Assembly (NCBI RefSeq): GCF_001949145.1
Contig: NW_019091360.1
Span: forward strand, 320,502-384,501
Direction: 5' to 3'
DNA: 64,000 nt
From: Acanthaster planci
Lineage: Eukaryota
Under the pieces are notes generated by a model, which saw only the letters and a program-made list of their open reading frames with translations, did no database searches and was not told the DNA's origin. How positions within the stretch are numbered: position 1 is the stretch's first letter; each line of letters opens with the position of its first letter. Made by a program: the position numbers and the translations under genes. Of this stretch, positions 5,690 to 61,583 are shown in pieces.

Positions 5690-6055
5690 TATCCGTACTG
5701 CTAATTCTTAATTATTCGTGTGCAAATTTCCATAATAACTCCTGTATGAAGAGTTCTTTCTTTTGTGAAGATTCACCACTGCCATTAGAGAGAAATGCCA
5801 CAGCACAGTTTGCAAAACACTGGGTCATTAAATCTAAAATTCACAAAGGATGTGTAATGTTTAAACACACATTGACCTCGAAGGAATTCAGTAACGATAC
5901 ATGGATGTAACAACACCTTCACAGATCACAAACATGATAATGCCCAGTGCTGGAATCGATTGGGTATGATAAAGGTATGTATTGTGAATATGCCTTAAAA
6001 GAATAAGCTTACCGTTTTAAAGAACGCAAAAAATGCTCTATTTGGTAGTCGGAGA
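5690..6055 (-). repeat. Diverged inverted copy of the repeat at ~14170-14530
   Basis: ATTGTGAATATGCCTTAAAA (5981-6000) is the reverse complement of TTTTAAGGCATATTCACAAT (~14206); colinear similarity over ~350 bp. Confidence 0.7.
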
Positions 6056-8397: not shown

Positions 8398-8887
8398 GTA
8401 CGTACATTTTTTAAGATTACCAAAAAAATGTCTTTATTGTAGGCATATTTTTTTATAAATAAATTTTTGAAAGCGGTCTTATTTCTCATTTTTTTGTAAT
8501 CAGGCAACTTCGGTCCTGCGTGAACTCTAAAAAGTTAGAAGGAATCTATGTAAAATATTAACATGCTATTTTTTACACTCCTCATCAATGGGATAGTTTA
8601 AAGATGTGCGCACTTTATTTTTGGGCTGGCTGGGTGAACGTCCCCTGTCACCCCCCTGAAATATTGAACTGAGCGAGTGCATATGAAAATAACCACACCA
8701 CAAAGTGAAAGTCTTGTTTAGTATTCTGAAGTTTCAAGTTGTACAAATAAAGTATTAGGATAATTAAGCCTCAGTTGGTGGATTTGTGGTCGGCCGCGGA
8801 ACCCATAGCCTGATTAGCCTCATTAGCATAATGAACCCCATTCTCCCTGATAATTCATTTCGTACTTCTTTTTCTTTATTCCCTAAG

Positions 8888-33772: not shown

Positions 33773-33868
33773 CTTTTAAACAAAGGGGTTTTTAAAAAGG
33801 AGGTGCTGTAGGTTTCACGTCTCGGTATTATGGAGGCGAGTCTTCGTATTTAACCGATTTGGTAAAAC

Positions 33869-34532
33869 TTACTCGCCAAGTTTTTTCATAAAATCTTTTT
33901 TTAAAATGGCTGCCCGTTCGTTAGCGAGTGTTTCTGCTCTTTCGTTTACTTGAATTCTTCTTTGCTCATCGATTTACTTGCTTGTAGTTTAATAGACGTA
34001 CTTGACCTAATTTTTTCTTTCATCTCGTTAAACTTTTTCAGCTCAGACAAAATTAGTACAAATTCCTCTTGTAAAATGTCATCATCCTCAATCACGTGAG
34101 AAACATATTCTTCGATGGTGTTTAGCTTGGAGTCTGCCAGCATTCGATTTGATCGTGCATTTTAGTTTTGTGGGACAGCCTGTGACTGGCATACTTTAGC
34201 AAAGCCTAGGCACCAAACGCACCGATAGCAATGCCACCTTCCATCACTGGTCCCACGGGTGCCGACACGCTGCCCAAAAGTACGGGAATTCCTACAGCTG
34301 CAGAAGTTGCACCTATCGCTTCTACGCCGTACTCTACGTAACCGAGTGCTGTTAAAAACCGTTTAATCTTTTTGTGGCTAGTTTCGCGCGTGTCACATTC
34401 TCTTTGGATTTGAGATTTGATTTCTTCGATCTTTCTGAGCCTGTAGACTCTCCTTTCTGCTTGTTCGGCAGAGTTTAATTCTAGGTGCTTAGTCAAATCT
34501 GGATATATGTTTGGCTTGACGTTTACTGTCAT
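33869..34532 (-). pseudogene. Coiled-coil + two-TM + helical C-terminus protein, copy A
   Basis: YRLRKIEEIK..two Gly/Ala-rich hydrophobic segments..LADSKLNTI..EEFVLILSE; homolog at 57701-58362. Confidence 0.8.
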
Positions 34533-35649: not shown

Positions 35650-36208
35650 TTTAGTATAAACAGGTTTTTAAAAGTCTTCTTCGACAAGTTTAAATTTATT
35701 GAGGGCGATGTCCCAGTGCTTATCCGAGACTTGAAATAAGTCTTTAACTGTTGATTCAGCTTCCACGGTTACATTTTGGTATAAGACAGCGATTAAGGCC
35801 TTCAGCGGTTTGCCTCTAGAGATCTTACCCACTAAAATTTGGTTTAACTTGTATTCTATGGTGCCCGCTTGAACATGCTTCAAACGTTTAATTCTTTTAA
35901 AACTTTACTCAACTTTTGCTTATGTTTTTATAAACGAAACATTGGTTATATTTACCACCCACGTTTTCTACATGTACTTCGTCTGACTAAATTTGACAAA
36001 ATATTAATCCGCAATGCCGGCATATGAGTTTATAATCTCTGATTATTTTGGTGTCGTGTGGGCATGTGGGTTCTTCTTCTTCTTCTTTGTTATTCACACA
36101 GGGTCTCATTTGGCTAAAAAGATAGATTAATAGAAGAGATAAACATAATCACCGCGATGGATGACAAATACAGTAAAAAGATAATCGCGGTGTCGTGTTG
36201 CTGGTAGT

Positions 36209-36244
36209 GATGTTTCGGCTGCTAGTGCTGCTAGCCTTCATCAG
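36209..36244 (-). ncRNA. Minimal hammerhead ribozyme core (left Penelope arm)
   Basis: Minus strand reads CTGATGA-AGGCTAGCAGCACTAGCAGCC-GAAACATC. Confidence 0.65.
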
Positions 36245-37064
36245 GCAACTGAAGTCTGGATGCTGCAGGGTCTGCTATATACCGCCGGATCGNNNNNNNN
36301 NNNNNNNNNNNNNNNNNNNNNNNNNNNNNNNNNNNNNNNNNNNNNNNNNNNNNNNNNNNNNNNNNNNNNNNNNNNNNNNNNNNNNNNNNNNNNNNNNNNN
36401 NNNNNNNNNNNNNNNNNNNNNNNNNNNNNNNNNNNNNNNNNNNNNNNNNNNNNNNNNNNNNNNNNNNNNNNNNNNNNNNNNNNNNNNNNNNNNNNNNNNN
36501 NNNNNNNNNNNNNNNNNNNNNNNNNNNNNNNNNNNNNNNNNNNNNNNNNNNNNNNNNNNNNNNNNNNNNNNNNNNNNNNNNNNNNNNNNNNNNNNNNNNN
36601 NNNNNNNNNNNNNNNNNNNNNNNNNNTGCGTTGGTGCTCCTTGATTCTCTCGCCGATTGGTCTGCCAGTTTCGCCGATGTATACCTTGCCACAGTCACCG
36701 CATGGTATCTTGTAGACCACTCCTCCGCGTCTTCTGGGTGGGATGGGATCCTTAGGGCGCACGAGTTGGTACACAAGACGCGTCAAGGAGGCCATCCACA
36801 TCCGCCTGAATAGACACAACATCAACAGAGACAGCGGCATCGACATCCCCAGTTTCTGGCTCCCCACCATCCGCCAACACAACCACCGGAGCACCGGAGC
36901 GCAACGGAGCCATACCGAGGACACGCCCCTTCACGCCCATGAAGTGGAGCGTGCGACGCCCGCTGAGGTCACCTGCACTGCGTCCGCAATACACGGCGGG
37001 GGACACGCGGAGGACGCGGTCCGGCGGTATATAGCAGACCCTGCAGCATCCAGACTTCAGTTGC

Positions 37065-37100
37065 CTGATGAAGGCTAGCAGCACTAGCAGCTGAAACGTC
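37065..37100 (+). ncRNA. Minimal hammerhead ribozyme core (right Penelope arm)
   Basis: CTGATGA, GCTAG-CAGCA-CTAGC stem, GAAAC, then GTC cleavage triplet; typical of Penelope pLTRs. Confidence 0.75.
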
Positions 37101-37232
37101 GCTACCAGCAACACGACACCGCGAGTCATCGATTATCTTTTTACTGTATAAGATAGATTAAGTTTTCTTCGCCCATGGGTAAAGGCTCATATTTGAAGGT
37201 TTGGTTAGACATGATTTTTATTAATAGTCCAT

Positions 37233-38689: not shown

Positions 38690-40315
38690 GTATCTGCCAG
38701 GTTTTATACCTTTCACCCACAGAAAATAATCTTCAAGTCTGGCTGCATCAAAGATGTACATATAATGTGTTTGTTGGGAACGTCATATTTGACAGATTTT
38801 TCATGACATTCGAGAATTTTGACAGAAAATACACGACGTTTAAGAATGCCAAAAACGATGTCACATGTAGTGCTTGAAAATTCCATGAGCTATGTTCATT
38901 TTACCACTTATTTTGGAGATATCCCCGCTAAAAATTAAATTAAAATTAACAACTCTGAGCATAAAATTTTCATCATTAATCGTATTTTATGTCTTGGACG
39001 TCATTTTTTTGTGTCCAGCATTCAGTATGATAGATTTTCTTTTAAGAGACCTTGGTATGAAGAGAAAAATCATGGAGCATCACAATTCCGTGGAGGGGCT
39101 CATGAATATCGAATGAAAAAGAGGGCGCACTATCTGGGTTGATGTCAAAGGTCAAACAGCCAGTGTTGTAGTCGAGTACTTTTTTCCGAGTATCAAGTAC
39201 TGCCGAGAACTTTGACTGCCGAGTACAAAGACAGAGCGAGCACTTTGCCAGCCAAGTATAAGTACTGGTTTCCGAGTACAAGTACTTGCACTTCCGAGTA
39301 CGAGTACAAGTACTTCTAATTCCGAGTACAAGTACAAGTACTTCTAATTAGTTTTAAAGTAGTTTTATCTTAATTTAGAGACGCTAAGACCGGCCACTGT
39401 GTAAAAGAAAGACCAAATACAGATGACATGGCTACAAGAACAAGTGATCTGGCTAGCAATGTCACAGTCACTACACTGCGTTGCAGCAGTTGACACAATG
39501 TGCATGGCGCGGCGAAGTCTATTTTCCAGACTCAATTGTTCACATGCCTGTGATTTTCTGTATGCTGGGTGCGTTGTTAGAATTTTTGACTCCAGGAACC
39601 AGACTGCCAATGCCCAAGTAAATCACGGGACCATTCTGGAGTACCACAATATAATTTGCGTACGTGACTGGTTAAGTACGCGCACAGACGGCGAATGGGT
39701 CGTATATGTTAATGGTCCCACGTTCGGCCTTCACTTTGTCAGAACCGTATCGAATATCGGGTCATTGGAGTCGATATTTTTGTACCTTATTTTAATAGCC
39801 GTGGTAAGTTAACTTAAAGGATTTTTTTTATCGAGTGCGAGTACTTTGATGCTCGAGTACAATTTTTAGATGTCGAGTTCCAAGTATTTTGCAGCTCGAG
39901 TACAAGAACTGTAGTTCGAGTACGAGTACTTGGACGTCCGAGTACAAGTACGAGTATAGGATTTCATGATTATGGTTTTAATATGTGTAAATATTATCAT
40001 CTTTCACCACATATAAATCTGTGTAAAATAACTGCAGGAATTATTCCTTCCCAGTAACTTTTATTTGGCTAGGATTTCAACAGGTTGTCACATCCATCAA
40101 CAATGCTGACGTCCGAGACTTTAATTAATCAACTCCGATTAAGTTAAGAGATACATGTAGGCACTGTCATCATTGTTCCAGATATCAGCCATGACTTCCC
40201 TCATTTCATCAGACATTAGGAATTAATTCACTGCTGTTCACTTCAGAAAAAATGAACCCTCAAAGTTGAACATTGTCTAATGATCCATATTTTGAGGAAC
40301 CTGCCGTTACACAAG
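38690..40315. repeat. Second copy of the ~15230-16315 repeat, interrupted at 39161
   Basis: Colinear similarity on both sides of the inserted element. Confidence 0.75.
39161..39956. mobile_element. hAT-like non-autonomous element, one end lost
   Basis: Starts CAGTGTTGTAGTCGAGTAC; dense CGAGTAC/CAAGTAC arrays at both ends; right terminus and TSD not recognisable. Confidence 0.55.
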
Positions 40316-44999: not shown

Positions 45000-45286
45000 A
45001 GTAGTAGGGATAGGAGAGTTCTGGACCACACGCCCTTTTAACCCCCTTTTACCCACCACACTCACCGGGGATTCCCACTCACCTTTTGACCCAGGCGCAC
45101 TTTTCCTGTAAACAACTCGTGACTCGACGCTAACCCCCTTTCACCCACACGCGCTGGGGATTTCCACTTCACTGACCTTGACCTTTTGACCCCGGCTCAC
45201 GTTTTTGTAAACAACTCGTGACTAGCACCGATCGCACCACTGCAATTACTCACAAACAAAAAAGGGACTTCCCGTCGACCGGAACT
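45000..45286. repeat. Left TIR of copy B, with an internal ~90-bp tandem duplication
   Basis: Matches the reverse complement of 61224-61583 on both sides of the N gap. Confidence 0.92.
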
Positions 45287-45452
45287 GTGACCTCAACTTA
45301 AAGCATGACTCTGTTCAAAGCAAAACACGCTATGTTTACAACCGCCTTAAATAAATGGCCCATATATAAAAATAACAATATAAAAAAACATGTCAAGTCA
45401 AGTCGTCAGACAAAATGATAAAAATTTTAGAGACCTACATATAAATAGAGAC

Positions 45453-48400
45453 ATGAGCAACCCACAACACCGACCTCTACTAACGAACTTTAATCGATTT
45501 AAGAAGGCGTTTTTAGAAGATTTTGTCAAGCGATATAATATTCCATTACCGGCACCAAAAACAACCAAAACCCGTAAATCTCAGACTAAACCTGAGCTCA
45601 TTGAAGCCATACGGGCAGATCAAAAACAATTTAGGTACCTCCCGCGTCAGTCATATCGGCAGCTGTTGAAAACGGTTCAAAAATATGATAATATTCCTTT
45701 TGCAAACAAAGACAGATATGTCAAACAGGACTTTATTGAAGCGATTTAAGCTTACACTCGGCCCAAGGAAATTGCGGAAGTCGACATTAGAAACGTCAGG
45801 CGCTTTCAGGGTAATTTTCGCAATTTGGAATTGGTACATCCGAGTCGTTTCTTTGAATACGATTTGATACAATTTTTTGATTTTAACAAAACTTTCATCG
45901 AGAAAAACGCTTTGGAAGAACTAAAAGAAATTGGTTCGTACAAATTGCAAACGAATATCAAAGTTCAGTTTAGATTGGAAAAACCCGAAAAAAATGAATT
46001 TGGCGTATTCCCCTTTCCGAGCGACAACGATGCAGTCGCAAATAAAACCGACGTTAAAAATGCACTCACTGACCAGAGGGAAAAACAAATAAAAGAGGTG
46101 GAGGCTCATACACAAAAAGGCTCGGGTTGGATCTTTGACAAAGTCGTCGCTTTCTACATCAACGTGGTTAAATATAATCCAGTGGGTTCTTCTTACATTC
46201 AGTTGCCTAAGGAACTGTTAGACAAAAAAGCAATCATAAATGTCGAAAATAAAGATCAAGAATGTATCCGATGGGCATTGCGGGCAGCTTTAAAATTATA
46301 TTCTGACAACGTCAAAAGCAAAATTGAAGTTAATCCAAAATATAAAATACATGACGAGCGAACATCGACTTACAGGTCAGAATCAGATGGTTTAAATTTT
46401 ACAAACATAAGCTTTCCAACACCGGTTTCACAAATCCCACGTATCGAATCGCAAAATAACTTGGCGCTCAATGTGTTTGGTTACATCAAAAAAGACGGTC
46501 TTTACATTCTTTACAAAAGCAAGCGTCCAGAAGAACCGATCAATTTACTTTATTTTACCCGAGATGACGAAAATAACTATTGTTGGATTAAAAACTTTTC
46601 TCGGTTGACGAGTGATATCGATCATCACAACGGCCAAAAACACTGGTGTTTTAATTGCATGTCGCATTTCCAAACGGAAGGAAAGTTAATCAGACACAAA
46701 GAAGATTGTCAAGGCTTAAACGTTCCCACATGTACGGTCGAGTTGCCGGCCAAAGGCGAGAATGTACTCAAGTTCAAAAATTACAAAAATAAACAAGACG
46801 CGCCTTTTGTTATTTACGCCGATTTTGAGTCTGTTTTAGAAAAATTACCACTGACAGCGAGCGATACAAACACGGTCAAAACACAGATTCACAAGCCTTG
46901 CGGATACTCATACGCGGTCGTCAGATGCGATGGAGTTTGCACTAGCCAAAAGAATTACAGGGGTCAAGACGCGGCTGTTAATTTTATACGGTCACTTTCT
47001 CAGGAAACAAAGAAGATCAACGAAACGTTTAAAAACAAAGCGAAGTTGATCTGGTCACCCGAGTTACAAAAATTCTACGAAAAATGTAATAGCTGTTGGA
47101 TCTGCGAAAAGTTGACAGATCGAGCGAAAGCGAACGAGCGAAGCGAGCGGAGCAACGAGCGTAGCGAGCATCACCGAGCGGAAGAATCTCAATGCCAGTG
47201 TGACATTCCAAATGAACCAAAAACAAAAGCTGACAAAATTGATTTCTGTCATAAAAATGAAGCTGGGTTAAGAGAATGGGTATGTTTAGATTGCAAAAAG
47301 CCCATCAATAATTTTAGAAAGGTTAGGGATCATTGTCACGTGACGGGGAAGTACCGAGGCCCAGCGCACGCCAGTTGTAATCTCAAGTTAAGAATAGTGG
47401 TCAATCAAACACCCATTCCGGTGATTTTACATAATTTAGAAAAATATGACGCACATTTAATCATGCAAGGCGCTCACAAATTTTACGGGAAATCAATCAA
47501 GTTGATCGCTAAAAATACTGAAAATTACATTTCGTTTTCTTTCGGCCAACTCAGGTTTTTAGACCCATTTCATTTCATGGCGGCTTCGCTAGATCGGTTG
47601 GTTAAAAATTGTTCACCCGATGATTTTAACTTATTATGCGAAAGGTTTCCAAATAACAGTCATTTACTCTTGGACAAAGGAATTTATCCCAATGAGTATA
47701 TCGATTCCTTTGATCGATTTCAAGAAACAAAACTCCCGCCAGTAGATGCTTTCTATAGCTCTTTAAAGCAGGGAGGAACAACCGAACAAGAATACGCTCG
47801 TTCGGAAACAGTATGACAAGCCTTTGGTTGTAAAAACTTAGGCGACTACCATGACCTATACGTGGAAACGGACGTGTTATTGCTAGCGGCTGTTTTTGAA
47901 AACTTTCGGAAGGTATGTAAACAACACTACAGCCTTGACCCAGCCAACTATTACACATCACCGGGTCTGTCGTGGGATGCACTCTTAAAACATTCGGGGT
48001 ACAGCTGGAACTATTAACCGACATTGATAAGCATTTGTTCTTCGAAAGGGCAAAAAGGGGTGGAATTTCTTCTGTAGGAGCCGAACGATATGCAAAGGCC
48101 AATAATCCAGAACTACCTGACTACAACCCGAATAAGCCAGAGTCACAGATCATGTACCTAGACGCAAATAATTTATACGGCTGGGCGATGAGCAAATATC
48201 TGCCTGTAGGGGAATTTACCTGGGAAACAGACTTAGAATAATTTACATACTATTACATCCAAGAGTTGCGACTAACTGACGACTATGGTTACATGTTTGA
48301 GATTACTATGGATTACCCGGAACGTCACCATGACAAACACAATGACTTTCCACTTGCACCCGAAAATATGTCGGTCCCGAATGAATGGCTTTCGAGCTAT

Positions 48401-49452
48401 CAACAAAATTTAATTAGCAACGGAGTAGCGAGCGAAGCGACCTCGGTAGACAAACTCGTGGTCACTTTGGACACCAAACGAAAATATGTGTGCCATTATC
48501 GTACATTGCAAAAATATCTCAAACTCGGGTTGTGGATCAAAGAAGTTCACCGAGTATTGAAATTCCGTCAAAAGCCGTGGATGAAAAGCTATATTGACAA
48601 AAACACAAAATTGCGCAAATTGGCCAAATCTGATTTTGAGAAAGACTTTTTCAAATTGATGAATAACTCAGTCTTTGGCAAGACGATGGAAAATGTCAGA
48701 TATCGAATTGACGGTCATTTACTGAGAGACGTACAGGATCCGATAAGTACAGAAAATTAACTTATAAACCAAATTACAAATCGACGGTACCATTTGAGGA
48801 GTGCGAGCTTTCGTTTGTGGAGATGTACCGAACCAAAACAAAATTAAATAAGCCAATCTATTGCGGTGTAAGTATTCTCGATATCTCAAAAACATTGATG
48901 TACGATTTCTACTACAACGAGCTAAAAGCCAATTTTGGTGAGGGGGTACGCTTACTTTACACGGACACTGATTCTCTATTAGACCAGATCGAGCGAAGCT
49001 CACACGGTTTAAACGGCTACCTAAACGAAAAGCGCAATTTGTTTGACTTTAGTAATTACCCACCCGATCATCAACTTTACAGCACCAAAAATAAAAAAGT
49101 CATAGGCAAAATGAAAGACGAATTTGGTGGCGAAACAATTTTAGAAGCCGTTTGCATCAGACCAAAAATGTATTCGGTTCTGACGGTCGATCAAAATTTA
49201 AAGAAGGCGAAAGGGGTCACAAAAGTAGTAACCGAGAAACGGTTAACCAACGAGATGTATAAAAGCTGCCTATTTGACCGGGTTTCTTATTTCAATAAAC
49301 AGCCATTATTTAGATCGGACAAACATCGGGTGTTTACTCTGTCCCAAAACAAACTAATCCTCTCGCCGTTGGACACAAAGCACTACATATTGCCGAATGG
49401 AATCGATACGTTAGCTTACGGGCATAAGCGAATCGAAGCGAACCCAAGCTAA
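45453..49452 (+). pseudogene. Protein-primed family B DNA polymerase (pPolB) with EndoVII/HNH-like insert, copy B
   Basis: VIYADFES, VRDHCHVTGKYRGPAHASCN, HNLEKYD, KGIYP, YLDANNLYG, KLMNNSVFGK, YTDTDS, KKAKGV; stops at 45747, 47814 and 48239 plus several frameshifts. Confidence 0.96.
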
Positions 49453-49476
49453 TCAACAACGAAGCTACTCCCGTTA

Positions 49477-50330
49477 TTACTCAGGTAATTCGGTATCTTC
49501 GGGTACGACCTGAAGTTCCTCTTTGACGAAACTCCTATTTGGGCCGTTTAATAGATAATACAAAGTCTGGAGGTAGTTCTCTTTGACGCTCGCTTCGCTC
49601 GCTCACAGGTGCACTGGGTGTTTGGCTCGCTACGCTCGCTAATTTTATAGCTTCTGCAGGAACGGCATCGATTAAACGCGTTTTTTCCTCGTTTAACGAT
49701 TTCACGACCTGGGGCAAACGTTCTACCCATTCAACGTTTCGCTCACCCACGTTTATCATTTCTTGAGCGTATTGATGGCCGAATAAACGCTCGGCTAAAG
49801 TGCAGTTAAACCTTTCCACGAGTCCTTGAGATCTGTGAACACCCGGCACACCCACTTGAATTTGTACTTTATTTTTTGCCATTAACTTTTTAAACTCGCC
49901 TTTGAATTCAGATCCCGAGTCTACTATTCCGAATTTGGGCCAGGTCAGAGCTGATCGTTCGTAAATTTTCTTGGTCGCTTCGCTCACTTGCTCAGCGGTT
50001 TTACTGGTCAACGGCTCGGCTTTTTTATACCGGGAATCCACGTCTATCATGGTCGGTATTTAAACGTTTTTCTTTTAACGCGGTCCCAGGGTAAATAAAG
50101 TACGTCCATTTGATGCGCGTAATTAGGTTCGACCGATTCTGATTGCAACATTGTAGGTCTGGGTACGTAATTTGGTTTTGGTAAATATATTTGCCAAATG
50201 GCCTGCTTTTTTAGCCAGTTCCTGATAACTGATTTGTCAGCACCGGTATTTTGTGTAGATGATCGACCGCGCTTTCTCCTCGCCAGTAACCCTGTGGGCT
50301 GTAAAACAACTTGGAAAATTCTCTCTCCAT
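49477..50330 (-). pseudogene. Retroviral-like DDE integrase, copy B
   Basis: HQMDVLYL, IDVDSRYK, VDSGSEFKG, SQGLVERFN; frameshifts, and a C-terminal deletion relative to copy A. Confidence 0.92.
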
Positions 50331-50341
50331 TTTAAAATAAG

Positions 50342-50761
50342 TTACGCAAATCGATAAGCTAAGAAACCGACCAAGGCCGTCCCGGATATAATTCAAACAA
50401 ACTCGCGACTTTTTTGATCTTCGGAAGGCTCGTAAAAATCGGACAATTAAGGCTCTGGCGGTAATGGGGTAATACTCTTACCGGTCAATTTCGAATAAGC
50501 TAGTAGGGATTCGTCCACGTTTACAAATGTCTGCTGACTCGCGCGTTCTTGTCGCATTCGTTCGTTTAAAAAATCTAGCATGTGTACGCGGTATAGTTCC
50601 CAGGATTCCTTCGCTTGCGCCAATTGCTCCAACGCGAGGTCGTGTCGCTTTCGTTCTTCGTCGACTTTACTTTTTGATAAACTGCTAAATAAAAAATTTG
50701 AGTCCGTGAATGCCAAGCCGTTTACTATCGCTCCTTCCACCATCATCAAAGCACTAGCCAT
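50342..50761 (-). pseudogene. RHDLALEQ-family membrane protein, copy B (inverted relative to copy A)
   Basis: MASALMM..NFLFS..ERKRHDLALEQ..PEP*LSDFY..TALVGFLAYRFA. Confidence 0.8.
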
Positions 50762-50788
50762 TTTTAAAATAAGGTTGAAGTAAATTAA

Positions 50789-50996
50789 ATGAATAGCGAA
50801 GTTAAAGATCAATTGTCGGAGATTCAAGCAGACCTAAGCAACCTCGAGCAGATGTTGGGTGATATGTGTGCCGATATAGACCACATCGGTGATATGGTTT
50901 CAGAGACCCCGGCAAAGTGAAAAATACGAAGACCTGTTTTTTACGGTCGGTGTATCCTTAATCGCATTTTCTTTTCTTTTTAAAATATTTCAATAA
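50789..50996 (+). pseudogene. Small coiled-coil tail-anchored protein, copy B
   Basis: MNSEVKDQLSEIQADLSNLEQMLGDM, then a frameshifted LFFTVGVSLIAFSFLF tail. Confidence 0.65.
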
Positions 50997-51032
50997 GAAT
51001 AGTAAATAAGAATATTATATTATAAAAGTAAT

Positions 51033-52300
51033 ATGTCACAACAATACACCAAAAAGCTAAACCCGAGCAGGCGTCTAAAGGTTCCTCGCGCGATCAAAGG
51101 CGAAAGGCGCGAAGTAACCATTACGCATAATCCGAGTACCATAGCCGCGGGTCACACGTTAAACGTACAATTTCCGGCCCTAGGCACGGACGACATCATT
51201 GTACCCGGCACCGCGAAACTGGCTTTTAAACTTGATCTAGAGGGCGCTTCGGACGATAACAGGACAGTTTATAACAACGTGGCGAGAAACCTGGTTTCGG
51301 AAATAAACGTTAGTCTACAGGGAAACAAAATCGTAAGTTACCGAGATGCGGACGTATTTCACAATTTTAAGGACAATTGGCTACCCCTGTCGCAGACTAA
51401 AAATATGGCGTACTTTGGTTTGGAAAAGGAGAACGTGGCCATGATACGTGTTGGTGCTGGCGACAAAAACGAAGCCGAAAACAACGGTAAAGATAAAGCG
51501 ATTGCCGATGCTTTTAAAAACAGATACACGATTCCACTGGACACGCCTTTGTTGACGGATCATTCTCCCTTTTACCCGTCGTGGTTTAAAGAGCCTCTGA
51601 CGTATCAACTGACTTTTAACGGGCACGACAAAGTGGCCAACTCGTCAGATACAGCCGCAGAATACTCCATTTCGGACCTGACCCTGGAATACGAAGTTGT
51701 TACTAATCGAGATTTGGCGCAAACAGTAAAAAATAAAAAAAAAGCGATGTATTACCTATTCGACCGGGTGCATTCCTGGAAGAAGCAAGCGGTAAACAAG
51801 TCTGACACGCTTTGGAACATCAGCATCGACAAACGATCAAGAGCTTGAAAGGAATTTTGATCCTGTTTAAAGACCCGGCTATTAAAACCCCCCAGAGATT
51901 TTATAAACCGCATATAACAAAAACGATTGTGACGGTCGAAGGTAAACCGAATCAACTTTATTCGCAGGGTCTGTTTGAATACCAACATTGGAACGAAATT
52001 ACAAAATATTCTGGCGATTCGGATAGAGAATCGGCTAGAGCGGTGGCCAAGGACCTAAACTTAACCGGAGTAGATATGGCCGAATACTTAAGAGATAAGT
52101 ACGGTCTGTGGCTCGATTTCAGAAGTTCCGACGATAACAGCGCTCATAGATCGGGTAGACCACTAGGCGGCAAAGGAGATATATCGATTCAAATGGAAAG
52201 AGCGAGCGAAACCGCGGGACCGCTGACGATGTACGTGTTTCTGGTGATGGACTTGCAACTCACGGTTGAGGACGGTAATTTTAAGAGCTTGGTTTATTAA
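51033..52300 (+). pseudogene. Putative double jelly-roll major capsid protein, copy B (single frameshift ~51830)
   Basis: ~420 aa when joined; KLNPSRRL..THNPSTI..FPALG..IVPGT..YGLWLDFRS; beta-rich; among the most conserved genes between the copies; adjacent to the ATPase. Confidence 0.78.
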
Positions 52301-52304
52301 AAAA

Positions 52305-53042
52305 ATGAGCGAGCGTAGCGAAGCGAAGCGAGAAACGAGCGAAGCGAGTGTTACCGAAGCGAATGAACGAAGCGAACAACGAGCGAAGCGAGCGAATGAA
52401 ATGAAAAATTTTAGTAGACCATACTTTTACAAGAATCTGCATTGTGCATTGATCGTGGGTGAGACGGGTAGCGGGAAGACTAACTGGATTTTAAATCTTT
52501 TAGAGACTGAATATAAATTCGCGTTTGAAGCTATCGTGATCATCTGCCCGACGCTTTTTAAGAATAAAACGTATTTAGAACGCCCGTGGATATACACCGA
52601 CGAAAACGTTTACCTGTGTGATTTAGATCGGGAAAGACTAGAATTAAACGAGTCAATCGAACTTTATCAAAAAATATTCGACGAAACGAACACGTTGTTT
52701 ATTATCGACGACTGCGCAGCTGATCAGTTTATTAAGTACCGAAAGAAATCTAAGAGTAGCAATACGTGCGCTTTCAGTAAGATGGCGTTCTCAGGCCGAC
52801 ATTACCTTCACAGCTGCTGGCTACTTACCCAAAAGTACAATTCGGTGCTAAAAGATTTCAGAGAGAATACGGCATGGACCGCTATTTTTCATTGCAAAGA
52901 TAGATCGTCCTTTGACCAATGTCTGGATGAGAATGACGTAGTACCGGACGAAAAACGTGATCAAATAAAAAAATATTTACGAGACGTGAAATTTAGTAAG
53001 CTAATTTTAAATACGGAGACACCGGTGAGCTATTTCGTTTAG
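52305..53042 (+). CDS. A32/FtsK-HerA-type genome packaging ATPase, intact
   Basis: Walker A GETGSGKT, Walker B LFIIDD, SGRH and LLTQ motifs; the first ~32 aa derive from a repeat array (alternative ATG at 52401). Confidence 0.92.
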   Translation: MSERSEAKRETSEASVTEANERSEQRAKRANEMKNFSRPYFYKNLHCALIVGETGSGKTNWILNLLETEYKFAFEAIVIICPTLFKNKTYLERPWIYTDENVYLCDLDRERLELNESIELYQKIFDETNTLFIIDDCAADQFIKYRKKSKSSNTCAFSKMAFSGRHYLHSCWLLTQKYNSVLKDFRENTAWTAIFHCKDRSSFDQCLDENDVVPDEKRDQIKKYLRDVKFSKLILNTETPVSYFV

Positions 53043-53087
53043 TAAAATTGAGAATTTTTTTTAAAAATACTACTAATAAAAGTAACG

Positions 53088-53672
53088 ATGAAAAAGAATT
53101 GCGTTAAGTGTCGTTGGCTTTCAGACTGGACAAACTTTAAAACGCAGAAAACAGGCAAAATTAACTCGACTTGTAACGATTGTATCGAGAAAATACGAGC
53201 TTATCAAGCGTTAAACAAGTGCCCGCACGGGAAGCAGGGATCTCAGTGTGTGGAATGCAACGGATCGTCAATTTGCGAACACAGGCTACTAAGATATGCT
53301 TGTAAACGTTGTGGTGGAGGTGGCATCTGTCTGCATGGAAAACAGAGGTCATATTGCAAGATTTGTTCTGACCCGATTGAAGTAAAGATTAGAAGATGGA
53401 TTAACACCGCTCGCAAATTAGATAAGAAGTATGGCCGATTTGAACCTAATTATTTGATCGACACACACTTTTGCCGTGGTTTGATCAAAGATTGCAAGGT
53501 TCGAATGCAATTCTTAGAGAACAAAGATGACTTGTGTACCATTGAATGATTAGATAACAAAATCGGTCACATTAAGTCTAACGTTGTGCTTTGCTGCTTG
53601 AGTTGTAACTATAAAAGGAAGTCTGATAAGTTAATTGTTACGTCGTCTAATGATTTAAAAATTGGCTACTAA
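53088..53672 (+). pseudogene. CxH-x6-CxxC repeat zinc-ribbon protein with a C-terminal HNH-like nuclease
   Basis: CPHGKQ..CVEC / CEH..CKRC / CLHGKQ..CKIC; reading through TGA 53547 gives TIE*LDNKIGHIKSNVVLCCLSCN. Confidence 0.75.
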
Positions 53673-53762
53673 ATATCTATTAACTACCTAACTTTTGTTA
53701 TAGCTAGGCTACGTCAGCCTAGTTACAACTTTTTTTATTTTAGTTATAACAAATAAGCAACA

Positions 53763-53921
53763 ATGTTTGAGCTAGTTCAACTACTTATTCAGTTAGTTAT
53801 AGCAGCTAACCTGACCTACCTTACGATCGAGTACATACGGTTAAAGCACGCCTACAAGAAATTTAAAAATCATATAATTAAATGGACGATATCAAAAGCA
53901 TTCTCACCGAGCGAAGCGTAG
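53763..53921 (+). CDS. Small single-TM peptide (below the ORF-track cutoff)
   Basis: MFELVQLLIQLVIAANLTYLTIEY; copy A has the homologous LEYIQLVIQL.VIIAANLTYYTYEY at ~29870-29950. Confidence 0.55.
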   Translation: MFELVQLLIQLVIAANLTYLTIEYIRLKHAYKKFKNHIIKWTISKAFSPSEA

Positions 53922-54483
53922 CGAGCAGCGAATCAACTGAATCGAGCGAATGTAAACAAAACGTCAAAGACAGACTCTGTTCGATAGCTGCGTCAGGTGA
54001 AAGTAAAAAGTACCTAGGTAAAGAATATTCGATCAAAGAAATTGAAGCTCTGTCACTTAAAGACCAAGAAAAGCTTTTTAACCTCTACGAAGTTAAATTT
54101 GGCAAAGAGATCGTCAAAACTCTCGGCCACGCTATTTTAAGTCTTTATTCTCGCTTACTCGGTATAGCTACTCCGATCGATCTACTCGGGTTCAACGTTA
54201 ACTTGACGTCCGAAGAAGCGCTGACCAAAGACCTAAGCAACGACCCGATTATAAGTCAGACCATGGGTCACTTACTTTAACCGAGATCTGTTACAAGTAC
54301 GGTGTATATTCGTCACCACTTACAGCTGCGTTGATTACCACTAAGCATCTAGAATTTAACAAAAGCTCTGTTATATTAAAAGAGGATGTCAACGAACGAA
54401 CAAGCGAACACTCCAGCAAACAACGAAGTGAACAGTCCAGTATAGACGAACGAAGCGAGACCTCAGACGGTAACTACAATTAA
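53882..54483 (+). pseudogene. Conserved hypothetical protein (SKKYLGK motif), copy B
   Basis: Homolog of 30007-30543; frameshift near 54280. Confidence 0.75.
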
Positions 54484-54822
54484 AGTAAACGTTAAAAGTC
54501 CGAAGCGTGTAGAACAAGGTAAGAAATTAGCCGAGCATAACAAAAAGATGAAGCAACAGCTCGCCTAGATGAAGCAAAGCGAAGCGAGCAGCGAAGAGAG
54601 CAACCAGAATAAAATTTATCAAACGGCTAGAGAAAACAGAAACTTGATATTTGGTGGATTGGCGATTGGAGCGCTTGCGGTCTATTTAATTTGGAAAAAC
54701 AAGTTGACGCCCATGAAAGCCGAAACGAACAAGAACCAATTAGTTCAACCAAAAAGCGACCGAAAAAAGCAAACTCGAGCCAAGAAAATAAAATTGAAGA
54801 ACAGATTTTAGACATGGAATAA
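54386..54822 (+). pseudogene. KSPKRVEQGKKLAEHN-motif protein with a TM segment, copy B
   Basis: Basic motif, then LIFGGLAIGALAVYLIW; ends QILDME like copy A. Confidence 0.65.
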
Positions 54823-54846
54823 ATTTAAGATTCCTTATTATTAAAT

Positions 54847-55095
54847 ATGAGTAACGCTAAATCAATCGACGTAAACGGAATCGCGAATACTGTTTACCAC
54901 GGTGCAGTCGTTTCGGGGCTATCGCTCGGTTACGCCATGCTATCGAGCAAGCTATTTAAAATCAAACCGCCGGATTTAAATAAATTATCTGCCGAAGACG
55001 CGTTGAAATTGACCGCGCTGTCTAGCGGTGCATTGGCCACCCAGGGTTGGTTGGTAGCGCAAGGTATCCTGCCCGCGAGCCTGCCCACCGCTTAA
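54847..55095 (+). CDS. Small hydrophobic protein, intact
   Basis: 82-aa ORF with two hydrophobic segments; conserved with copy A. Confidence 0.8.
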   Translation: MSNAKSIDVNGIANTVYHGAVVSGLSLGYAMLSSKLFKIKPPDLNKLSAEDALKLTALSSGALATQGWLVAQGILPASLPTA

Positions 55096-55122
55096 GTTTC
55101 TTTATTTTAAAGTTAAAGTGAC

Positions 55123-56474
55123 ATGGCTGAAGGAGGATTGGATCCCGAGGAAATACCTCTGTTAAATCTAGATAACGAAGAAACAAATCAAAAGGATTTA
55201 GATTGGGACTATAATGAAACATCGTTGTTAGAAGACCCTGATTTTACACATCCTATTACTGTTGGGCCAGACGAAGAAGATGAAATATATGGCGGCTTAG
55301 AGAGCGAAAAGCGATACTACGAATAAATTAAAGACGTCGATCCTTTACACGAAACAGAACTAACAAAACAAGTCAACTTAATGGAGCTTAGGCAATTGTT
55401 ACGCGAATCTAAAGTGAACGATTTTTACTCAGCTATTAAAGGAGAAACTGGTTACGAAACAGAAATTAAAGACCCAAATGTTTTTAATTTGGATAGTAAA
55501 GATCGCCTGTACGTAAAGTTTGAAGGCAAAAAAGTTCTTTTAACCCAAGAAAACGATAATAGTAAATTTCTTAGCCTAAATACTATTAGACAAAGAACAA
55601 ACACAGATTTTATAAGACGCGTCTTAGGCTTGATAGATTACGTTTCTGGCAAAACGAAACAACAGGCGCAAAAAGTGGCCCGTAAACTCGCGGACTTCAT
55701 CCCGAGAGCATAGAATTGGTAGAACTACCCCAAGAAGCTGATTTAGCGAGCGACATCGTAGAAGACATTACCCGTGACGTAGACGTTCAATCCGAAGGGT
55801 TAAATTACAGAGAACTCGTCGCTTTAGATAAATCGTTGCAAACGGTAAAAGGAGAATTAATTTAAATCAAGGTAAATTAGATCAGTTAGACGCAAAAATT
55901 CAACAGGTCGAAGCCGAGTTTGAAAAGCGACATCTGGAGGAGAACGTACAGAACTTCAACGGCAATTGGGCGACTTACGAGTCAAAGACGGGGTAGATTA
56001 GAAGTAATCGATAGAAATACCGATCAATTGAGGAGTCTAATTAATCGCATCAAGGAAACGACCGAAAAGATCATGAATTCAGATTTGACACTACGCGAGA
56101 AGATTCGAACGATATTTCGGGAACAAGGCGTCACGATCGTGAGCATTTTAACGGCTTTTAGTTTAGCCGTGAGTACCATCGTTAGTAGTATCGTGGCTAG
56201 CGTCAGAGCTGCCGGAGCGAGCAAACCAACACCCGCACCTAAACCAACGCCAGTTCCTCCTTCCAAAGGTGGAATTACCGATTGGATCAAACATCAGCTG
56301 TGGAACTTGGCAAACGTATTGAAGAAACTCGGGTTGAAAGCTTTAGGCGCTCTGCTCGGAATCATCGGTAGCGTTTTGAGTTGGATTTTTAACGTGGCGA
56401 GTAAAACGGTCGGATTGGTGGCTGAGCACGTGTGGACCTTGTTTGTACGCCTTAAATCAAACCGTTTAAGTTAA
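55123..56474 (+). pseudogene. Acidic / coiled-coil / membrane C-terminus protein, copy B
   Basis: MAEGG..LREKIRTIFREQGVTIVSILTA..WIKHQLWNLA..GSVLSWIF; stops and frameshifts. Confidence 0.8.
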
Positions 56475-57544
56475 AATTTTATACAACGTAAAACCGATGA
56501 CACCCACGGCAACGGCTCTGACGGTTAATGATAGTTTCTCTTCGTAGTGAGCGTCTAAAGACTTACTTAAAACTGGCTATACAATTGGTCTCGGTAACAC
56601 TTCCGGTTCTGGTTCTTCATTCAAACTCGGTACGTATCCAGTCTTCATATCTGCAGTCGCGACTTGTAAATTATTGTTATAACCCTCAAAAGTGCCTATG
56701 CGTAAGTCCATGTCAGAGGGCACCAGGTATAAACCGGGGTGACTACGAAATTCAAAGGCGTTTTCACGTATTGTAGCGAATTTGAAATTGGTCGATCGAC
56801 TGTTCGAGATCGGGGTCCGAATTAATTAAAGACCCCACGATCATAATAAATTGCCGTTGCGCGTCTAATCCGGTGCCGGTGGCCAAAACGCTGGTCTTGG
56901 TCTGTGCCTGTGCCCCGAGTAACGCGTAGACGTAAGCTCGAATTGATTCGTTTACCTTGGTGATTCCCACGTTCGTCAACCGAGACTTTTTAGGAACAGA
57001 ATCCCACCAGGCCAAAGTAACCGCGTCCGACTGTGAAATCCAGGTGACCGTGTAGGTACTCGCGTGACCGGAACCTTTAGGCAATTTAGCCCAGCCAAAT
57101 CCCATGTAAGTAGATCCCGCGTATTTACCGTTGGTCACGTGTAAGTCGTGCGCGTCGTAGTTTTTACCCGGAACAGGTACGTAACCGTCGTCGTAATAAT
57201 AAGCGGTGCCTAATCAGGCCGATAATTTGTCTCTTGTTTGTTTATACGATTTATTTGGGTCTACTCCGTATAAAAGGCACGTGTCGGTAAACTTCCGATG
57301 GTCGTAATTATTGCGTAACGCATCAAATACGTCGTCGCTAGGAATGGGCATCACGCAGTTGTAAAATATTTTTCTTACGGTGTAATACACGTGAAAGTTA
57401 AATAAAGCCGAGACATATGGATTGGGATCAGACAGCAGATCAAAACCCACACCGCCGGCCCATACGCGTGCGTCAAATTTAGAAACTCGGCTGTAAATTG
57501 TCTTCGTTGACTACAATGTTTAGACTACTAAAATTGCCTCCCAT
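56466..57544 (-). pseudogene. MGxxxS-start, C-terminally anchored protein, copy B
   Basis: MGGNFSS start; NFHVYY; ESIRAYVYALLGAQAQT; hydrophobic tail AVAVGVIGFTLY. Confidence 0.8.
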
Positions 57545-57700
57545 TTATTTTAAAAGACTTTTAAAAAGGAGGGGCCGTCGGTTGGGTGAAAATACTCGCT
57601 TCGCTCGTTGTCGTTTTGTTCGGTTTGCTCGTTTCGATCGCTTCTCGATAAGCGGGTGGAGATTCTGGCTTTTCTTTAAACTTAACCGACTTTGTTAAAG

Positions 57701-58362
57701 TTATTCGCCAAGTTTTTTCATAAGATCTTTTTTTAAAACCGCCGCCCGTTCGTTGGCTAGCGCTTCTGCTCTCTCGTTGACTTGGCGTTCAAATTCTTCT
57801 TTAGAAGTTTCTTTAGTTTCCTCCAATTTTGTAGACGTACGCGATCTGATCTTTTCTTTCATCTCGTTAAACTTTTTCAGCTCGGATAAAATAAGGACAA
57901 ATTCTTCCTGGGATATGACACCGTCTTTAATCGCGTGAGATACATATTCCTCGATGGTGTTAAATTTAGCGTCTGCCAACATTCGAATTTGGTCGTGTTT
58001 TTTAGTTTTGTGGGTGAGTCTACGGGAGGTGTATTTCAATATCGCGTAAGCGCCAAACGCACCGATAGCGATGCCTTCCATCACAAGTCCAACGGGTCCG
58101 GTTACGACTCCCAAATTGGCGGGAATGCCGACGGTGTTGATGTGGCACCAATTGCTTCCACGCCATACTCCACTTACCGAGTGCGGTTAAAAGTCGTTTG
58201 ATCTTTTTGTAACTATTTTCTCTCGGGTCACGTTCTCTTTGGATTTGAGATTTAATTTCTTCGATCTTTCTGAGTCTGTATATTTTGGTTTCCGCTTGTT
58301 CAGCCGAGTTTAAAGTCAACTCCGGGTGTTTACTTAAAATCCGGGTATACGTTAGTCGTCAT
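57701..58362 (-). pseudogene. Coiled-coil + two-TM + helical C-terminus protein, copy B
   Basis: YRLRKIEEIK..GVVTGPVGLVMEGIAIGAFG..KHDQIRMLADAKFNTI..DGVISQEEF. Confidence 0.8.
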
Positions 58363-58397
58363 CTTTTATTATAATATTACTTTTATAATCACGCGTT

Positions 58398-59359
58398 TTA
58401 AAAAATGTCTAACTCGATTAAAATTTTGCCGATGTTATTCAAGAGCTCGCCTCTATCGTTTTTAACAGAAAAAGTCAATTCACTGATGTTCCTGTCGATT
58501 AACTTTTTAGGCGTTTCACAGTGATTACAGGTGCGAGGCTCGGTAGCTATCACGTACAGCAAGTCTAAAGACTGCCCGTTGTAAAAATTGTAAAATGTAT
58601 TTAATTGTTTGCAGTGAATAAACGCGAGTTTCAATGGGTTTAAATCGTACTTGCCTTCGTAAATAACGTTGGGTAAAAGTTTTATTTTGGGTAAGTTCAA
58701 TAGCTTCTTTGTTTAATCGCAACTTGAGATTGGGTCCGTAATGGCCAATGTCACCCGTTTAGATTCTGAGTGAACCATAAAAGAAACACCCGCAATCACA
58801 AAAAGTGAAACCAGTCCATGCCATAATAACCGAGGGATACCACAATGCTTCCTCTTTGGCCCTGGGGTAATGGTTCAGATGAGCTTCGCGAATGAAGTCT
58901 GTCATATATAGGTTCAGTTAGCCCTGTCAAAAACAGTCTTTTAGTCAATTCTCTTCTGGGTCTCGTGGGTGTTACGGGGGAGTTGGTGGTGGTAGGTCGA
59001 GTTGGGAGATTCCCTTCGTAGATTTCATCTAAAGCTTGTCTTTGCCCCTCGAGCAGTGAGCTGATTTTACTTTTTTATCGTCGATATCAAAAGCTAAAAG
59101 AGATCGCATTTCTGATGGTTGTCTTTGGTTTAACTGATCTTCTAAAGTTGCGATTTCTTGGTTCGGCTGCTCAATTTCATCAGCAATGATTCTAATTTCT
59201 TGCGCTAAATTGCCTCTTTTATTTGCTTGGATCAATCTGTTTTTAGCTGTTTGTACTAATTCTGAATTGGGAGATGCGTCCGTTCTTTCCACTGAGGGTA
59301 TTCCGGGCGGTCGTTCGCCAAGTACTCCCGCGGGCCTACCCTCCAAGTTTGTATCCCAC
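58398..59359 (-). pseudogene. Putative minor capsid protein with coiled-coil insert, copy B (5' part in gap)
   Basis: AFIHCKQL..YNGQSLDLL..ISELTFSVKNDRG..IELDIF; homologous to 34553-35649. Confidence 0.65.
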
Positions 59360-59968
59360 NNNNNNNNNNNNNNNNNNNNNNNNNNNNNNNNNNNNNNNNN
59401 NNNNNNNNNNNNNNNNNNNNNNNNNNNNNNNNNNNNNNNNNNNNNNNNNNNNNNNNNNNNNNNNNNNNNNNNNNNNNNNNNNNNNNNNNNNNNNNNNNNN
59501 NNNNNNNNNNNNNNNNNNNNNNNNNNNNNNNNNNNNNNNNNNNNNNNNNNNNNNNNNNNNNNNNNNNNNNNNNNNNNNNNNNNNNNNNNNNNNNNNNNNN
59601 NNNNNNNNNNNNNNNNNNNNNNNNNNNNNNNNNNNNNNNNNNNNNNNNNNNNNNNNNNNNNNNNNNNNNNNNNNNNNNNNNNNNNNNNNNNNNNNNNNNN
59701 NNNNNNNNNNNNNNNNNNNNNNNNNNNNNNNNNNNNNNNNNNNNNNNNNNNNNNNNNNNNNNNNNNNNNNNNNNNNNNNNNNNNNNNNNNNNNNNNNNNN
59801 NNNNNNNNNNNNNNNNNNNNNNNNNNNNNNNNNNNNNNNNNNNNNNNNNNNNNNNNNNNNNNNNNNNNNNNNNNNNNNNNNNNNNNNNNNNNNNNNNNNN
59901 NNNNNNNNNNNNNNNNNNNNNNNNNNNNNNNNNNNNNNNNNNNNNNNNNNNNNNNNNNNNNNNNNNNN

Positions 59969-60628
59969 CAGTGAACCGTTGGTACCGTAGTATACGTCTT
60001 TTGCACAAATAAATGATTGCACGTCGCATCTCTTATTGATAAATTTATCGATATTTGACGAGTCGATAGATCTTTTTCGGTGATCAAATAGGGAGGCATA
60101 GGGATCTATTTTAACGTACATTTGGTTTTTAGCAGTATAAGGCGGTTTAACTACATATTCGATCTTGTTCAATTCATCGATATCATGACTAGCTTTGTAG
60201 GCGTTCACGGTGTTAGACGGGAGATTAGACCCTTGAGACTCAATAAATTTATAAACGGCCAAATTTATGTGATCGAGTGCGTTTGTCGTAGGTGATTGTA
60301 TTTGGTAACAAATTTGACGGCCTTGGATGTTTTCAGGCGTTTTATCTCGAGTGCCGTATTTGTAAAGTGGGTTTATACCGTAACATGGTTCTATCGTCAT
60401 AATCAACAGGCGTTTGTTTTGGCCGTTGTGATGGTAAAAAATGGGCGAAGTGTAGGTCCCTTCTTTAACCACGGGTTTTGAAATAATTAATTTACTCGGG
60501 TCAAAGGGACCGTATGTGACACTGGGATCGCAGTTGTCGGCATTGAGACGCTCGTGGTCGTCCGAAACGATAAATACTTGAGTTGACATGGTTCTGATTT
60601 TCCCGGCTTTGACCAAAAATTTTCTCAT
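59969..60628 (-). CDS. Putative OB-fold ssDNA-binding-like protein (3' end in gap)
   Basis: FDPSKLIISKP..PIFY..RLLI..YGI..MYVKI..LFD..KRCDV..DVYYG pattern resembles DUF2738-like ssDNA-binding proteins of large DNA viruses; open up to the gap. Confidence 0.5.
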
Positions 60629-60630
60629 TT

Positions 60631-61167
60631 TTATTCGAGTGGGATTTCTACTTTAATTAAATGTTCGACATCAGCGTTGTATTTAATAATTAATCCAATT
60701 TTGTATAAATCCGCGTCGAGTTTAGTCGATGAATCGGGCAGTGGCTGGTTCTCTCGCGCGTGCCTCAGCTTTTTATGCTTGCCGTCTACGAGCACCACGT
60801 GATCTATTCCTTCCAACTCGACACAATTCACGCAGCAGGTGCAATAGGTACAACCAAAACATTCGATACAACGGGCACACTCGTAACAGTCCTCGCAACT
60901 GTCCAAGGCATTTGAATTCCGGCAGTCGTATGAATTAAAACAAGCCACGCAATTTATACATCTACCGCAATCGTCGCTGGTGGAGCAGTCCTTACATCTG
61001 ACGCAATCGTTACATTGGTGGCAATTGTGGCATTCTTTACAATCGGTGCATTTGCGTAAACTTTTGGAATTTAAACAACGAAAGCAATCGTACGAATCTA
61101 TCAAATCGATCGAATCTCTCGTGTCTTTGCAAAAATAACAATTCACGTTTGTAGTTTGATCTACCAT
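60631..61167 (-). CDS. Cys-rich CxxC-repeat protein, intact
   Basis: 178-aa ORF with Cys at roughly every third residue over ~110 aa. Confidence 0.8.
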   Translation of the reverse strand: MVDQTTNVNCYFCKDTRDSIDLIDSYDCFRCLNSKSLRKCTDCKECHNCHQCNDCVRCKDCSTSDDCGRCINCVACFNSYDCRNSNALDSCEDCYECARCIECFGCTYCTCCVNCVELEGIDHVVLVDGKHKKLRHARENQPLPDSSTKLDADLYKIGLIIKYNADVEHLIKVEIPLE

Positions 61168-61223
61168 TTATTTTTATGTATTTTTATTATTGTTTGTTTA
61201 TTTTTTTATCATTTTTTATAACG

Positions 61224-61583
61224 AGTTCAGGTCGACGGGAAGTCCCTTTTTTGTTTGTGAGTGATTGCTGGTGCGATCGGTGCTAGTNNNNNNNNNNNNN
61301 NNNNNNNNNNNNNNNNNNNNNNNNNNNNNNNNNNNNNNNNNNNNNNNNNNNNNNNNNNNNNNNNNNNNNNNNNNNNNNNNNNNNNNNNNNNNNNNNNNNN
61401 NNNNNNNNNNNNNNNNNNNNNNNNNNNNNNNNNNNNNNNNNNNNNNNNNNNNNNNNNNNNNNNNNNNNNNNNNNNNNNNNNNNNNNGCCGGGGTCAAAAG
61501 GTGAGTGGAAATCCCCGGTGAGTGTGGTGGGTGAAAGGGGGTGAAAAGGGCGTGTGGTCCAGAACTCTCCTATCCCTACTACT
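61224..61583. repeat. Right TIR of copy B (contains an N gap)
   Basis: Reverse complement of 45000-45286. Confidence 0.92.

Follow-up and report, generated by a model that had tools for sequence, protein, structure and literature searches.

Why should the genes of one Polinton/Maverick element be strewn with copies of a minute DNA hairpin while those of its relative hold hardly any? The question is raised by a 64,000-nucleotide stretch of Acanthaster planci DNA (contig NW_019091360.1, positions 320,502 to 384,501; hereafter the window), which contains two such elements, A and B, the latter at 45000..61583. A preliminary description of the window had listed 13 GCGNAGC heptamers on the plus strand of B and five on the minus strand, with a further occurrence at 47583 set apart as an exception, and all 19 positions proved exact. 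The heptamer is real but the true unit is longer: the conserved sequence is a 13-mer, CGAGCGNAGCGAG, and the covariation described below resides in a tandem G·A stem that the heptamer leaves out. Seven exact copies of the 13-mer occur in the window, all in B; with up to two mismatches allowed there are 18 matches, 17 of them in B, against an expectation of 1.0. A search for the general hairpin pattern (tandem G·A between C:G and G:C) found 12 instances in B, where 0.6 were expected, and 0 in A.

Published structures exist for both halves of CGAGCGNAGCGAG, and on their basis we infer a mini-hairpin in which a GNA loop is held by three Watson-Crick pairs and a tandem of sheared G·A pairs. The pairing of the CGAG block (C:G, G:A, A:G, G:C) was solved by nuclear magnetic resonance (PMC10085684), and the inner half of the unit is the GCGNAGC mini-hairpin of PMC13037366. 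Only the purine-rich strand is predicted to be able to form these pairs. The arrays fold worse than their shuffled versions in ViennaRNA (z +1.5 to +4.2), which gives the fold no support; standard folding cannot model the non-canonical pairs, and the failure of standard parameters to explain GCGNAGC mini-hairpins is described in PMC13037366. The unit is a hairpin and a direct repeat (CGAG...CGAG) at once, and the arrays are strings of four- and five-base units (CGAG, CGAA, CGAAG, CGTAG, TGAA) without fixed ends, showing periods of 5, 9 and 13 at low scores.

The frequency of the motif is not a product of chance. GCGNAGC occurs 20 times in B, compared with a mean of 4.5 (maximum 12) in 300 dinucleotide shuffles, and once in A, where 3.4 were expected from as many shuffles. 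The count against codon-shuffled controls that had been proposed in the preliminary description excludes chance as well: within the open frames of B, which number 22 and amount to 11,739 bases (three listed sites fall outside them), there are 16 sense copies and one antisense copy, the latter being at background, whereas permutation of synonymous codons with each protein kept intact yielded a mean of 2.6 sense copies and codon shuffling a mean of 1.9 (maximum 8 in both), with none of 2000 replicates reaching 16 in either test. B is CpG-rich even without the motif clusters (observed/expected 1.36, against 0.94 in A), but these controls retain B's own codons.

All three sense frames are used by the motif, and all 11 clusters, which were delimited by our own choice, lie on the sense strand (p 0.001). 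An invasion of the coding strands of B, as had been claimed, is borne out by the clusters, yet two heptamers are probably incidental: the one at 58883 has no CGAG arms and no length change at its site, and the one at 52714 (GCGCAGC), absent from the earlier list, is likely a codon run in the ATPase. The minus-strand sites had been placed in or between genes; their positions are exact, but 57598 is not strictly intergenic, since it lies in an open frame kept by both A and B. The sense frames of the motif encode the hydrophilic peptides ERSE/SEAS/RAKR (mean hydropathy -0.8 to -2.5) and the antisense frames encode LASL/SLRS/RFAR (-0.1 to +1.0). The suggestion that the strand bias reflects tolerance of such peptides is now to be favoured, because intergenic copies elsewhere are not tied to gene strand.

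Three of the sites fall in the polymerase gene on the plus strand. The largest array (47120..47180) holds 13-mers at 47135 and 47156 and a GCGAAAGC tetraloop variant near 47125, exceeds A by 54 nt, and occupies a loop of varying length among homologs, which hold unrelated inserts of their own. It stands in a Cys-rich stretch of the N-terminal part of the polymerase (46900-47500), where many homologs have a PF02945 endonuclease VII-like domain. A near-copy read as SEATS (48429..48441, +6 nt relative to A) lies in a variable loop, where each of the 45 homolog rows is shorter than B. The copy read as ERSS (48990..49002, +6 nt, that is, two codons) adds two residues; neither A nor any of the 41 homolog rows compared has them, and the structural model would put them in a loop between strand and helix, after the strand following DTDS (mean predicted local distance difference test score 77). 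By these alignments, the motif is shown to have been gained in B at one well-aligned site, 48993.

On the minus strand, the integrase frame carries an exact 13-mer (49589..49601), another with a GTA loop (49626..49638) and a near-copy of the replacement type, with the same length as in A (49974..49986). The remaining plus-strand sites are a partial copy of two CGAG units in the 3' part of the capsid gene, likewise of the same length as in A (52195..52210); an array of four- and five-base units that makes up an open 30-codon extension before the packaging ATPase (52308..52396; exact 13-mers at 52336 and 52380 and an AT/AT stem variant at 52393); an array near the start of a small gene (53908..53951); a degenerate array near a gene end that includes an AC/GT core at 54423 (54395..54459); and a near-copy read as SEAS (54576..54602), which has a partial match in A at the homologous 30630. 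A further exact 13-mer with degenerate units lies on the minus strand at 57595..57640 (+63 nt relative to A), in the open frame that ends in PTAPPF in both elements. The length differences between B and A at the compared sites are +54, +6, +6 (at 48432), +3, +63 and two of 0; a comparison spanning 54447 gives +47, which includes a separate one-base gap about 70 bases downstream. The three A/B peptide pairs of the preliminary description (the IGKT pair, NGEQLTS/NGVASEATS and QIQTGDL/QIERSSHGL) are correct, and so is its statement that the B versions keep the frame, the site length changes being whole codons. Its statement that A lacks the motif at homologous sites holds for the most part, as there is no 13-mer in A, but A has ACGAGTGAAGC at 30630, the position homologous to 54579 in B, and the reading is SEAS in either element.

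Synonymous sites are saturated between A and B, and the ratio of nonsynonymous to synonymous substitution rates (dN/dS) is 0.12 over the aligned frames; on these comparisons A and B are two families diverged under protein selection and not near-copies. B itself belongs to a multi-copy family, because contigs from three runs show a very high summed depth over it, depth not being equal to copy number. At the polymerase array, 48 bases are missing from some family copies; in others 61 are missing and 10 non-motif bases stand instead. Both changes are of whole codons. Contigs also join the ATPase array to 50352, 50785/50803 and 54465, with short matched sides (20-25 bases where given) and the strand not given for some; this suggests that other B-family copies may have similar arrays at other sites. 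Of the earlier notion of a selfish micro-repeat in a live virus, the part supported by the dN/dS and the outgroup polarity is a hairpin repeat gained in frame under protein selection.

The motif is not confined to B. Among 81 related loci, four (L021, L042, L078 and L074) contain the 13-mer, the median locus being only 2.5 kb, so that absences are weak. In an ATPase tree the motif carriers, including B, need three changes and their union in a single clade is rejected (approximately unbiased test, p-AU 1e-5); this was a quick tree of 35 chosen rows, with the grouping defined once an earlier tree had been inspected and A's ATPase too short to enter. The motif is thus shown in Polinton lineages that are separate from one another, three in all. 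In L042 and L078 the ATPase has an in-frame insert of nine codons that their closest relatives lack, and the unit of this insert, along with its tail, is met again at further sites; L078 also has one antisense in-frame copy. The copies in L021 are longer, share a common tail and are mostly intergenic, four of the five tailed copies being on the minus strand among mostly plus-strand genes. In this 26% GC Polinton the unit is about 30-45 bases long, has its hairpin core in the AC/GT form and is dispersed over the sites 134, 1454, 3618, 4094 and 4304; it is a better candidate than that of B for a true small mobile element. Invasion on the scale of B looks uncommon, because motif peptide arrays were found in 0 of 120 polymerase homologs. 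No relative emerged when viral contigs were searched with a single protein, and an alignment search found one distant locus.

Far more copies exist in viruses at large. Exact 15-base scans of IMG/VR, in which the motif was estimated from 12 of 64 parts, its AC/GT form from 14 of 64, and three controls were scanned completely, gave about 680 stretches with the motif and about 580 with the compensatory AC/GT double change, against 47 for a one-sided mismatch, 32 for a broken G·A tandem and 35 for a fully Watson-Crick hairpin. Because the motif and its compensatory form far exceed the mismatched, broken and Watson-Crick versions, the non-canonical fold is likely to be what is kept across viruses. 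Redundancy is modest (124 stretches in 110 distinct contexts). The viral matches are predominantly non-coding (91 of 105 and 92 of 99, compared with 12 of 36 and 6 of 26 for controls), they cluster with further copies of either form within 300 bases, and they are not oriented to co-oriented flanking genes (10 vs 15, p 0.42). Several viral contigs (L107, L140-L142, L093/L112/L114/L127) have several copies in intergenic repeats, including pairs of opposite orientation about 130-170 bases apart. For prokaryotic genomes we estimate about 8,400 stretches (from 1/64 parts, with no control scan), in intergenic repeats beside unrelated genes; among 78 of 143 neighbouring frames, chosen for scanning, no recurring mobility enzyme was found, only one IS110 transposase and one plasmid Rep/Mob pair. 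Perfection of palindromes by template switching was considered as the source of the unit and rejected, the Watson-Crick version being at background.

What process could have written these copies into B? We put at about even the chances that they spread in the active B lineage by replication copying errors, protein selection then keeping those copies that are in frame, on the sense strand and in tolerant spots. The unit would fold on single strands exposed by strand-displacement synthesis, of which a Polinton-type polymerase is described as capable (PMC3511435). Since its sequence is also a direct repeat, slipped loop-outs may arise and lengthen the arrays, and CGAG blocks are reported to shift register (PMC10085684). 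Short template switches may seed new sites or overwrite old ones; in yeast, according to PMC3874155, polymerases stall and switch template at short hairpins. Protein selection would remove the frameshifting copies, those in protein cores and the antisense ones, and the coding-strand bias would come from the protein, the sense peptides being hydrophilic and the antisense ones more hydrophobic. No benefit to the element is required, though one is conceivable. Spread followed by such filtering would result in copies in loops and at ends, in whole codons and in all three frames, in polymorphism among family copies, and in no strand bias outside genes.

A number of points weigh against spread by copying errors. 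The stem covariation across viruses is left unexplained by spread and filtering alone and would be explained by selection on the repeat's own copying or by a protein reader; together with the lack of a Watson-Crick excess, it fits a protein-read fold at least as well. The data show no copying step, and the template switches of PMC3874155, as described there, destroy hairpins rather than spread them. Ectopic copying within B is weakly supported, because the longest exact stretch common to two clusters is 17 bases and is mostly the motif itself; parallel growth from chance seeds in an element so rich in CpG outside the clusters is possible. GCGNAGC is absent from the 1,596 non-coding bases of B, where about two were expected, so that this absence is weak. 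A cannot show the pre-insertion sequence, because synonymous sites are saturated between the two elements, and its partial ACGAGTGAAGC site is decay-like and common to A and B.

An alternative that we consider unlikely is that selection acts on the hairpins as a dispersed signal of the displaced single strand, where they would serve as exonuclease protection, as a spot free of single-stranded DNA-binding protein, or as a site for primase, polymerase or packaging protein. New copies would then be favoured, and their presence in coding sequence would be due to gene density. Such a signal would agree with the covarying stem and the background level of the Watson-Crick version, with the non-coding and clustered position of the viral matches, and with the two B sites that acquired the motif without length change; mini-hairpins are, moreover, described as nuclease-resistant, as poor binders of single-stranded DNA-binding protein and as present at phage and plasmid priming sites (PMC13037366). 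It is difficult to reconcile with the closely related family A having none, with the scarcity of the 13-mer among related loci, weak as absences from short loci are, with the varying length and position of arrays among B-family copies, and with the lack of copies in the terminal and intergenic stretches of B. The agreement of all 11 clusters with gene direction on both strands would be explained directly if copies arose or acted on the non-template strand opened by transcription, or in mRNA. This is improbable: the intergenic viral copies have no such orientation, those of L021 are mostly on the template strand, L078 has its antisense copy, and an Rfam scan of B found no match. Special stability is a property of GNA triloops in DNA; they are not known to have it in RNA.

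Equally improbable in our opinion is an enzyme that recognises the fold and moves the unit, be it the HNH-like protein of the element, a rolling-circle transposase of the host or the polymerase's endonuclease VII-like domain. B has a Cys-rich, weakly endonuclease VII/HNH-like gene (53088..53651, plus strand) that is absent from A, the longer tailed units of L021 resemble a small mobile element, and in prokaryotes the core is found in intergenic repeats beside unrelated genes. The gene is interrupted by a stop, however, and present in a small part of the family, its region having 3%, 7% and 8% of the family median depth in the three runs. It has no Pfam match, endonuclease VII being matched (E 0.0008) by a short C-terminal piece only, and its Atlas scores are below 0.9; a Cys-rich gene of L021 matches the same endonuclease VII family weakly (E 0.0087). 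The best matches to the C-terminal piece among relatives are in L045 and L015, loci without the 13-mer. The link between motif and HNH gene that had been envisaged is not supported. The copies in B also lack fixed ends and visible target duplications, and the endonuclease VII-like domain is common in homologs whose proteins show no motif peptide arrays. There remains the explanation of the counts by codon or CpG bias, or by loss of ancestral arrays from A through CpG decay, which had been named as the case that would overturn the preliminary description. The higher CpG content of B and the decay-like remnant in A speak for it, but controls with B's own codons and proteins failed in 2000 of 2000 replicates, A has no CpG-decayed 13-mer, and the outgroups side with A on length; apart from the one shared site it is largely ruled out, and we assign it a negligible probability.

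A broader proposal, which we regard as doubtful, is that the 13-base non-Watson-Crick fold is a minimal replicator without an enzyme of its own. It would stall and redirect strand-displacing polymerases and escape palindrome removal as only one strand folds; DNA viruses with protein-primed replication would have been colonised by it more than once, their polymerase, integrase and ATPase thereby acquiring new hydrophilic loops and tails, and it would also lie behind many of the intergenic repeats, so far without explanation, in phages, giant viruses, bacteria and archaea. By comparison of genomes, the counts in any case give evidence that the fold of a DNA hairpin with sheared G·A pairs, a structure known mainly in vitro, is maintained in nature and that of its Watson-Crick counterpart is not. 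Because arrays are absent from some copies of this high-copy Polinton family and short or long in others, the family would allow a direct test of a self-spreading fold against a signal. The hairpin repeat also shows how viral proteins can obtain new peptide loops, and it is an indirect probe of single-stranded intermediates in Polinton replication.

Element B measures 16.6 kb between the termini AGTAGTAG...CTACTACT, with 98-nt inverted repeats matched at 96% and AGTTT on each flank. Its terminal inverted repeats, a size within 15-25 kb and a target duplication (AGTTT) all agree with Polinton membership, the duplication being of 5 bases where that of Polintons is usually of 6. The protein-primed family B polymerase region (45750..49449, plus strand) consists of four open frames, several genes of B being broken across more than one reading frame. 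A Pfam scan of the polymerase pieces themselves gave no match, and the PF03175 assignment comes through homologs, which have PF03175 and PF02945; the predicted model matches adintovirus, MELD and bidnavirus polymerases. The integrase region (49538..50331, minus strand, two open frames) has a weak rve match, E 0.0035, under the Pfam curated cut-off. A probable major capsid protein region (51033..52297, plus strand) falls in double jelly-roll clusters with feature scores of 0.96-0.97, and the A32-type packaging ATPase (52305..53042, plus strand) matches Pox_A32 at E 1.5e-9. No Pfam or PHROG match to an adenovirus-like cysteine protease was found among the B frames scanned, part of B being N. One RNA run provided 752 reads, mostly less than 95% alike and on both strands, and no conclusion on expression is based on them.

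Several other features of the window were observed. A small gene has inverted orientation between A (27413-27753) and B (50361-50698). Near the right end of B, a Cys-rich gene of repeated CxxC units (60634-61167, minus strand) has a counterpart in A and no Pfam match. TTTTAAAAAAAG is kept near a gene end on the minus strand of both A (33790-33915) and B (57560-57745) and is followed by a -1-frame open stretch ending in PTAPPF; the site looks like a conserved programmed -1 frameshift that would add a tail with a PTAP-like motif. Within A, an insert of about 1 kb resembling a MITE (miniature inverted-repeat transposable element), with 108-base inverted ends, spans an assembly gap (36168-37149). 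Two blocks of 78-87% identity (15245-16303 and 38732-40305) connect the end of A with the left-hand portion of the window and are possibly a third-element remnant or a shared repeat. Further to the left, 5762-14453 contains nested inverted repeats (5762-6030 with 14177-14453; 11462-12174 with 13439-14178) flanking a hAT transposase with a BED finger.

How does the repeat of B compare with known systems? A MITE or other non-autonomous transposon was rejected, since the site alignments of A and B show no terminal inverted repeats or target duplications around the copies. Short tandem repeats such as CAG/CTG expand with the help of hairpins, and the B arrays are alike in being direct repeats with one strand able to form a mismatch-containing hairpin and in their length polymorphism, short units lying head to tail in numbers that vary among family copies; they differ in their mixed four- and five-base units, dispersed seeding and stem covariation across unrelated genomes. 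Rickettsia palindromic elements are Watson-Crick palindromes of defined extent. Together with other small bacterial repeats they likewise stand in frame in protein genes, whether internally or terminally, and are tolerated as new peptide, as presented in PMC3184786; in-frame insertion is found in B too, but those elements measure about 105-146 bases there, and in place of a unit of about 100-150 bases with defined ends B has a 13-base unit that folds on one strand, lacks fixed ends and resides in a Polinton. The element itself resembles the Polintons/Mavericks of PMC6431247 in size, terminal inverted repeats, polymerase, integrase, ATPase and capsid-like gene. In the literature covered, which was incomplete, we found no report of the 13-mer as a natural repeat or of hairpin repeats in Polintons, and in PMC9584320 the heptamer occurs inside primers only. 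The CGAG-block hairpins of the AUTS2 promoter (PMC10085684) correspond to the outer stem of the unit, and arrays could shift register as they do; those concern one human promoter region and have long loops, whereas B has dispersed single blocks, each with a C:G pair and a GNA loop as its cap. With the mini-hairpin GCGNAGC / GCGNNAGC of PMC13037366 the B copies share the seven-base core, with A/T/G loop variants and one GCGAAAGC variant. The natural cases presented there, on phage and plasmid DNA in single-stranded form, are a further likeness; they are single sites at origins or promoters, in contrast to the many copies, extended by tandem G·A pairs, in the coding frames of a eukaryotic DNA virus-like element. 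Both structural halves are thus known chemistry, while their occurrence as an in-frame repeat of a Polinton appears to be new in the literature covered.

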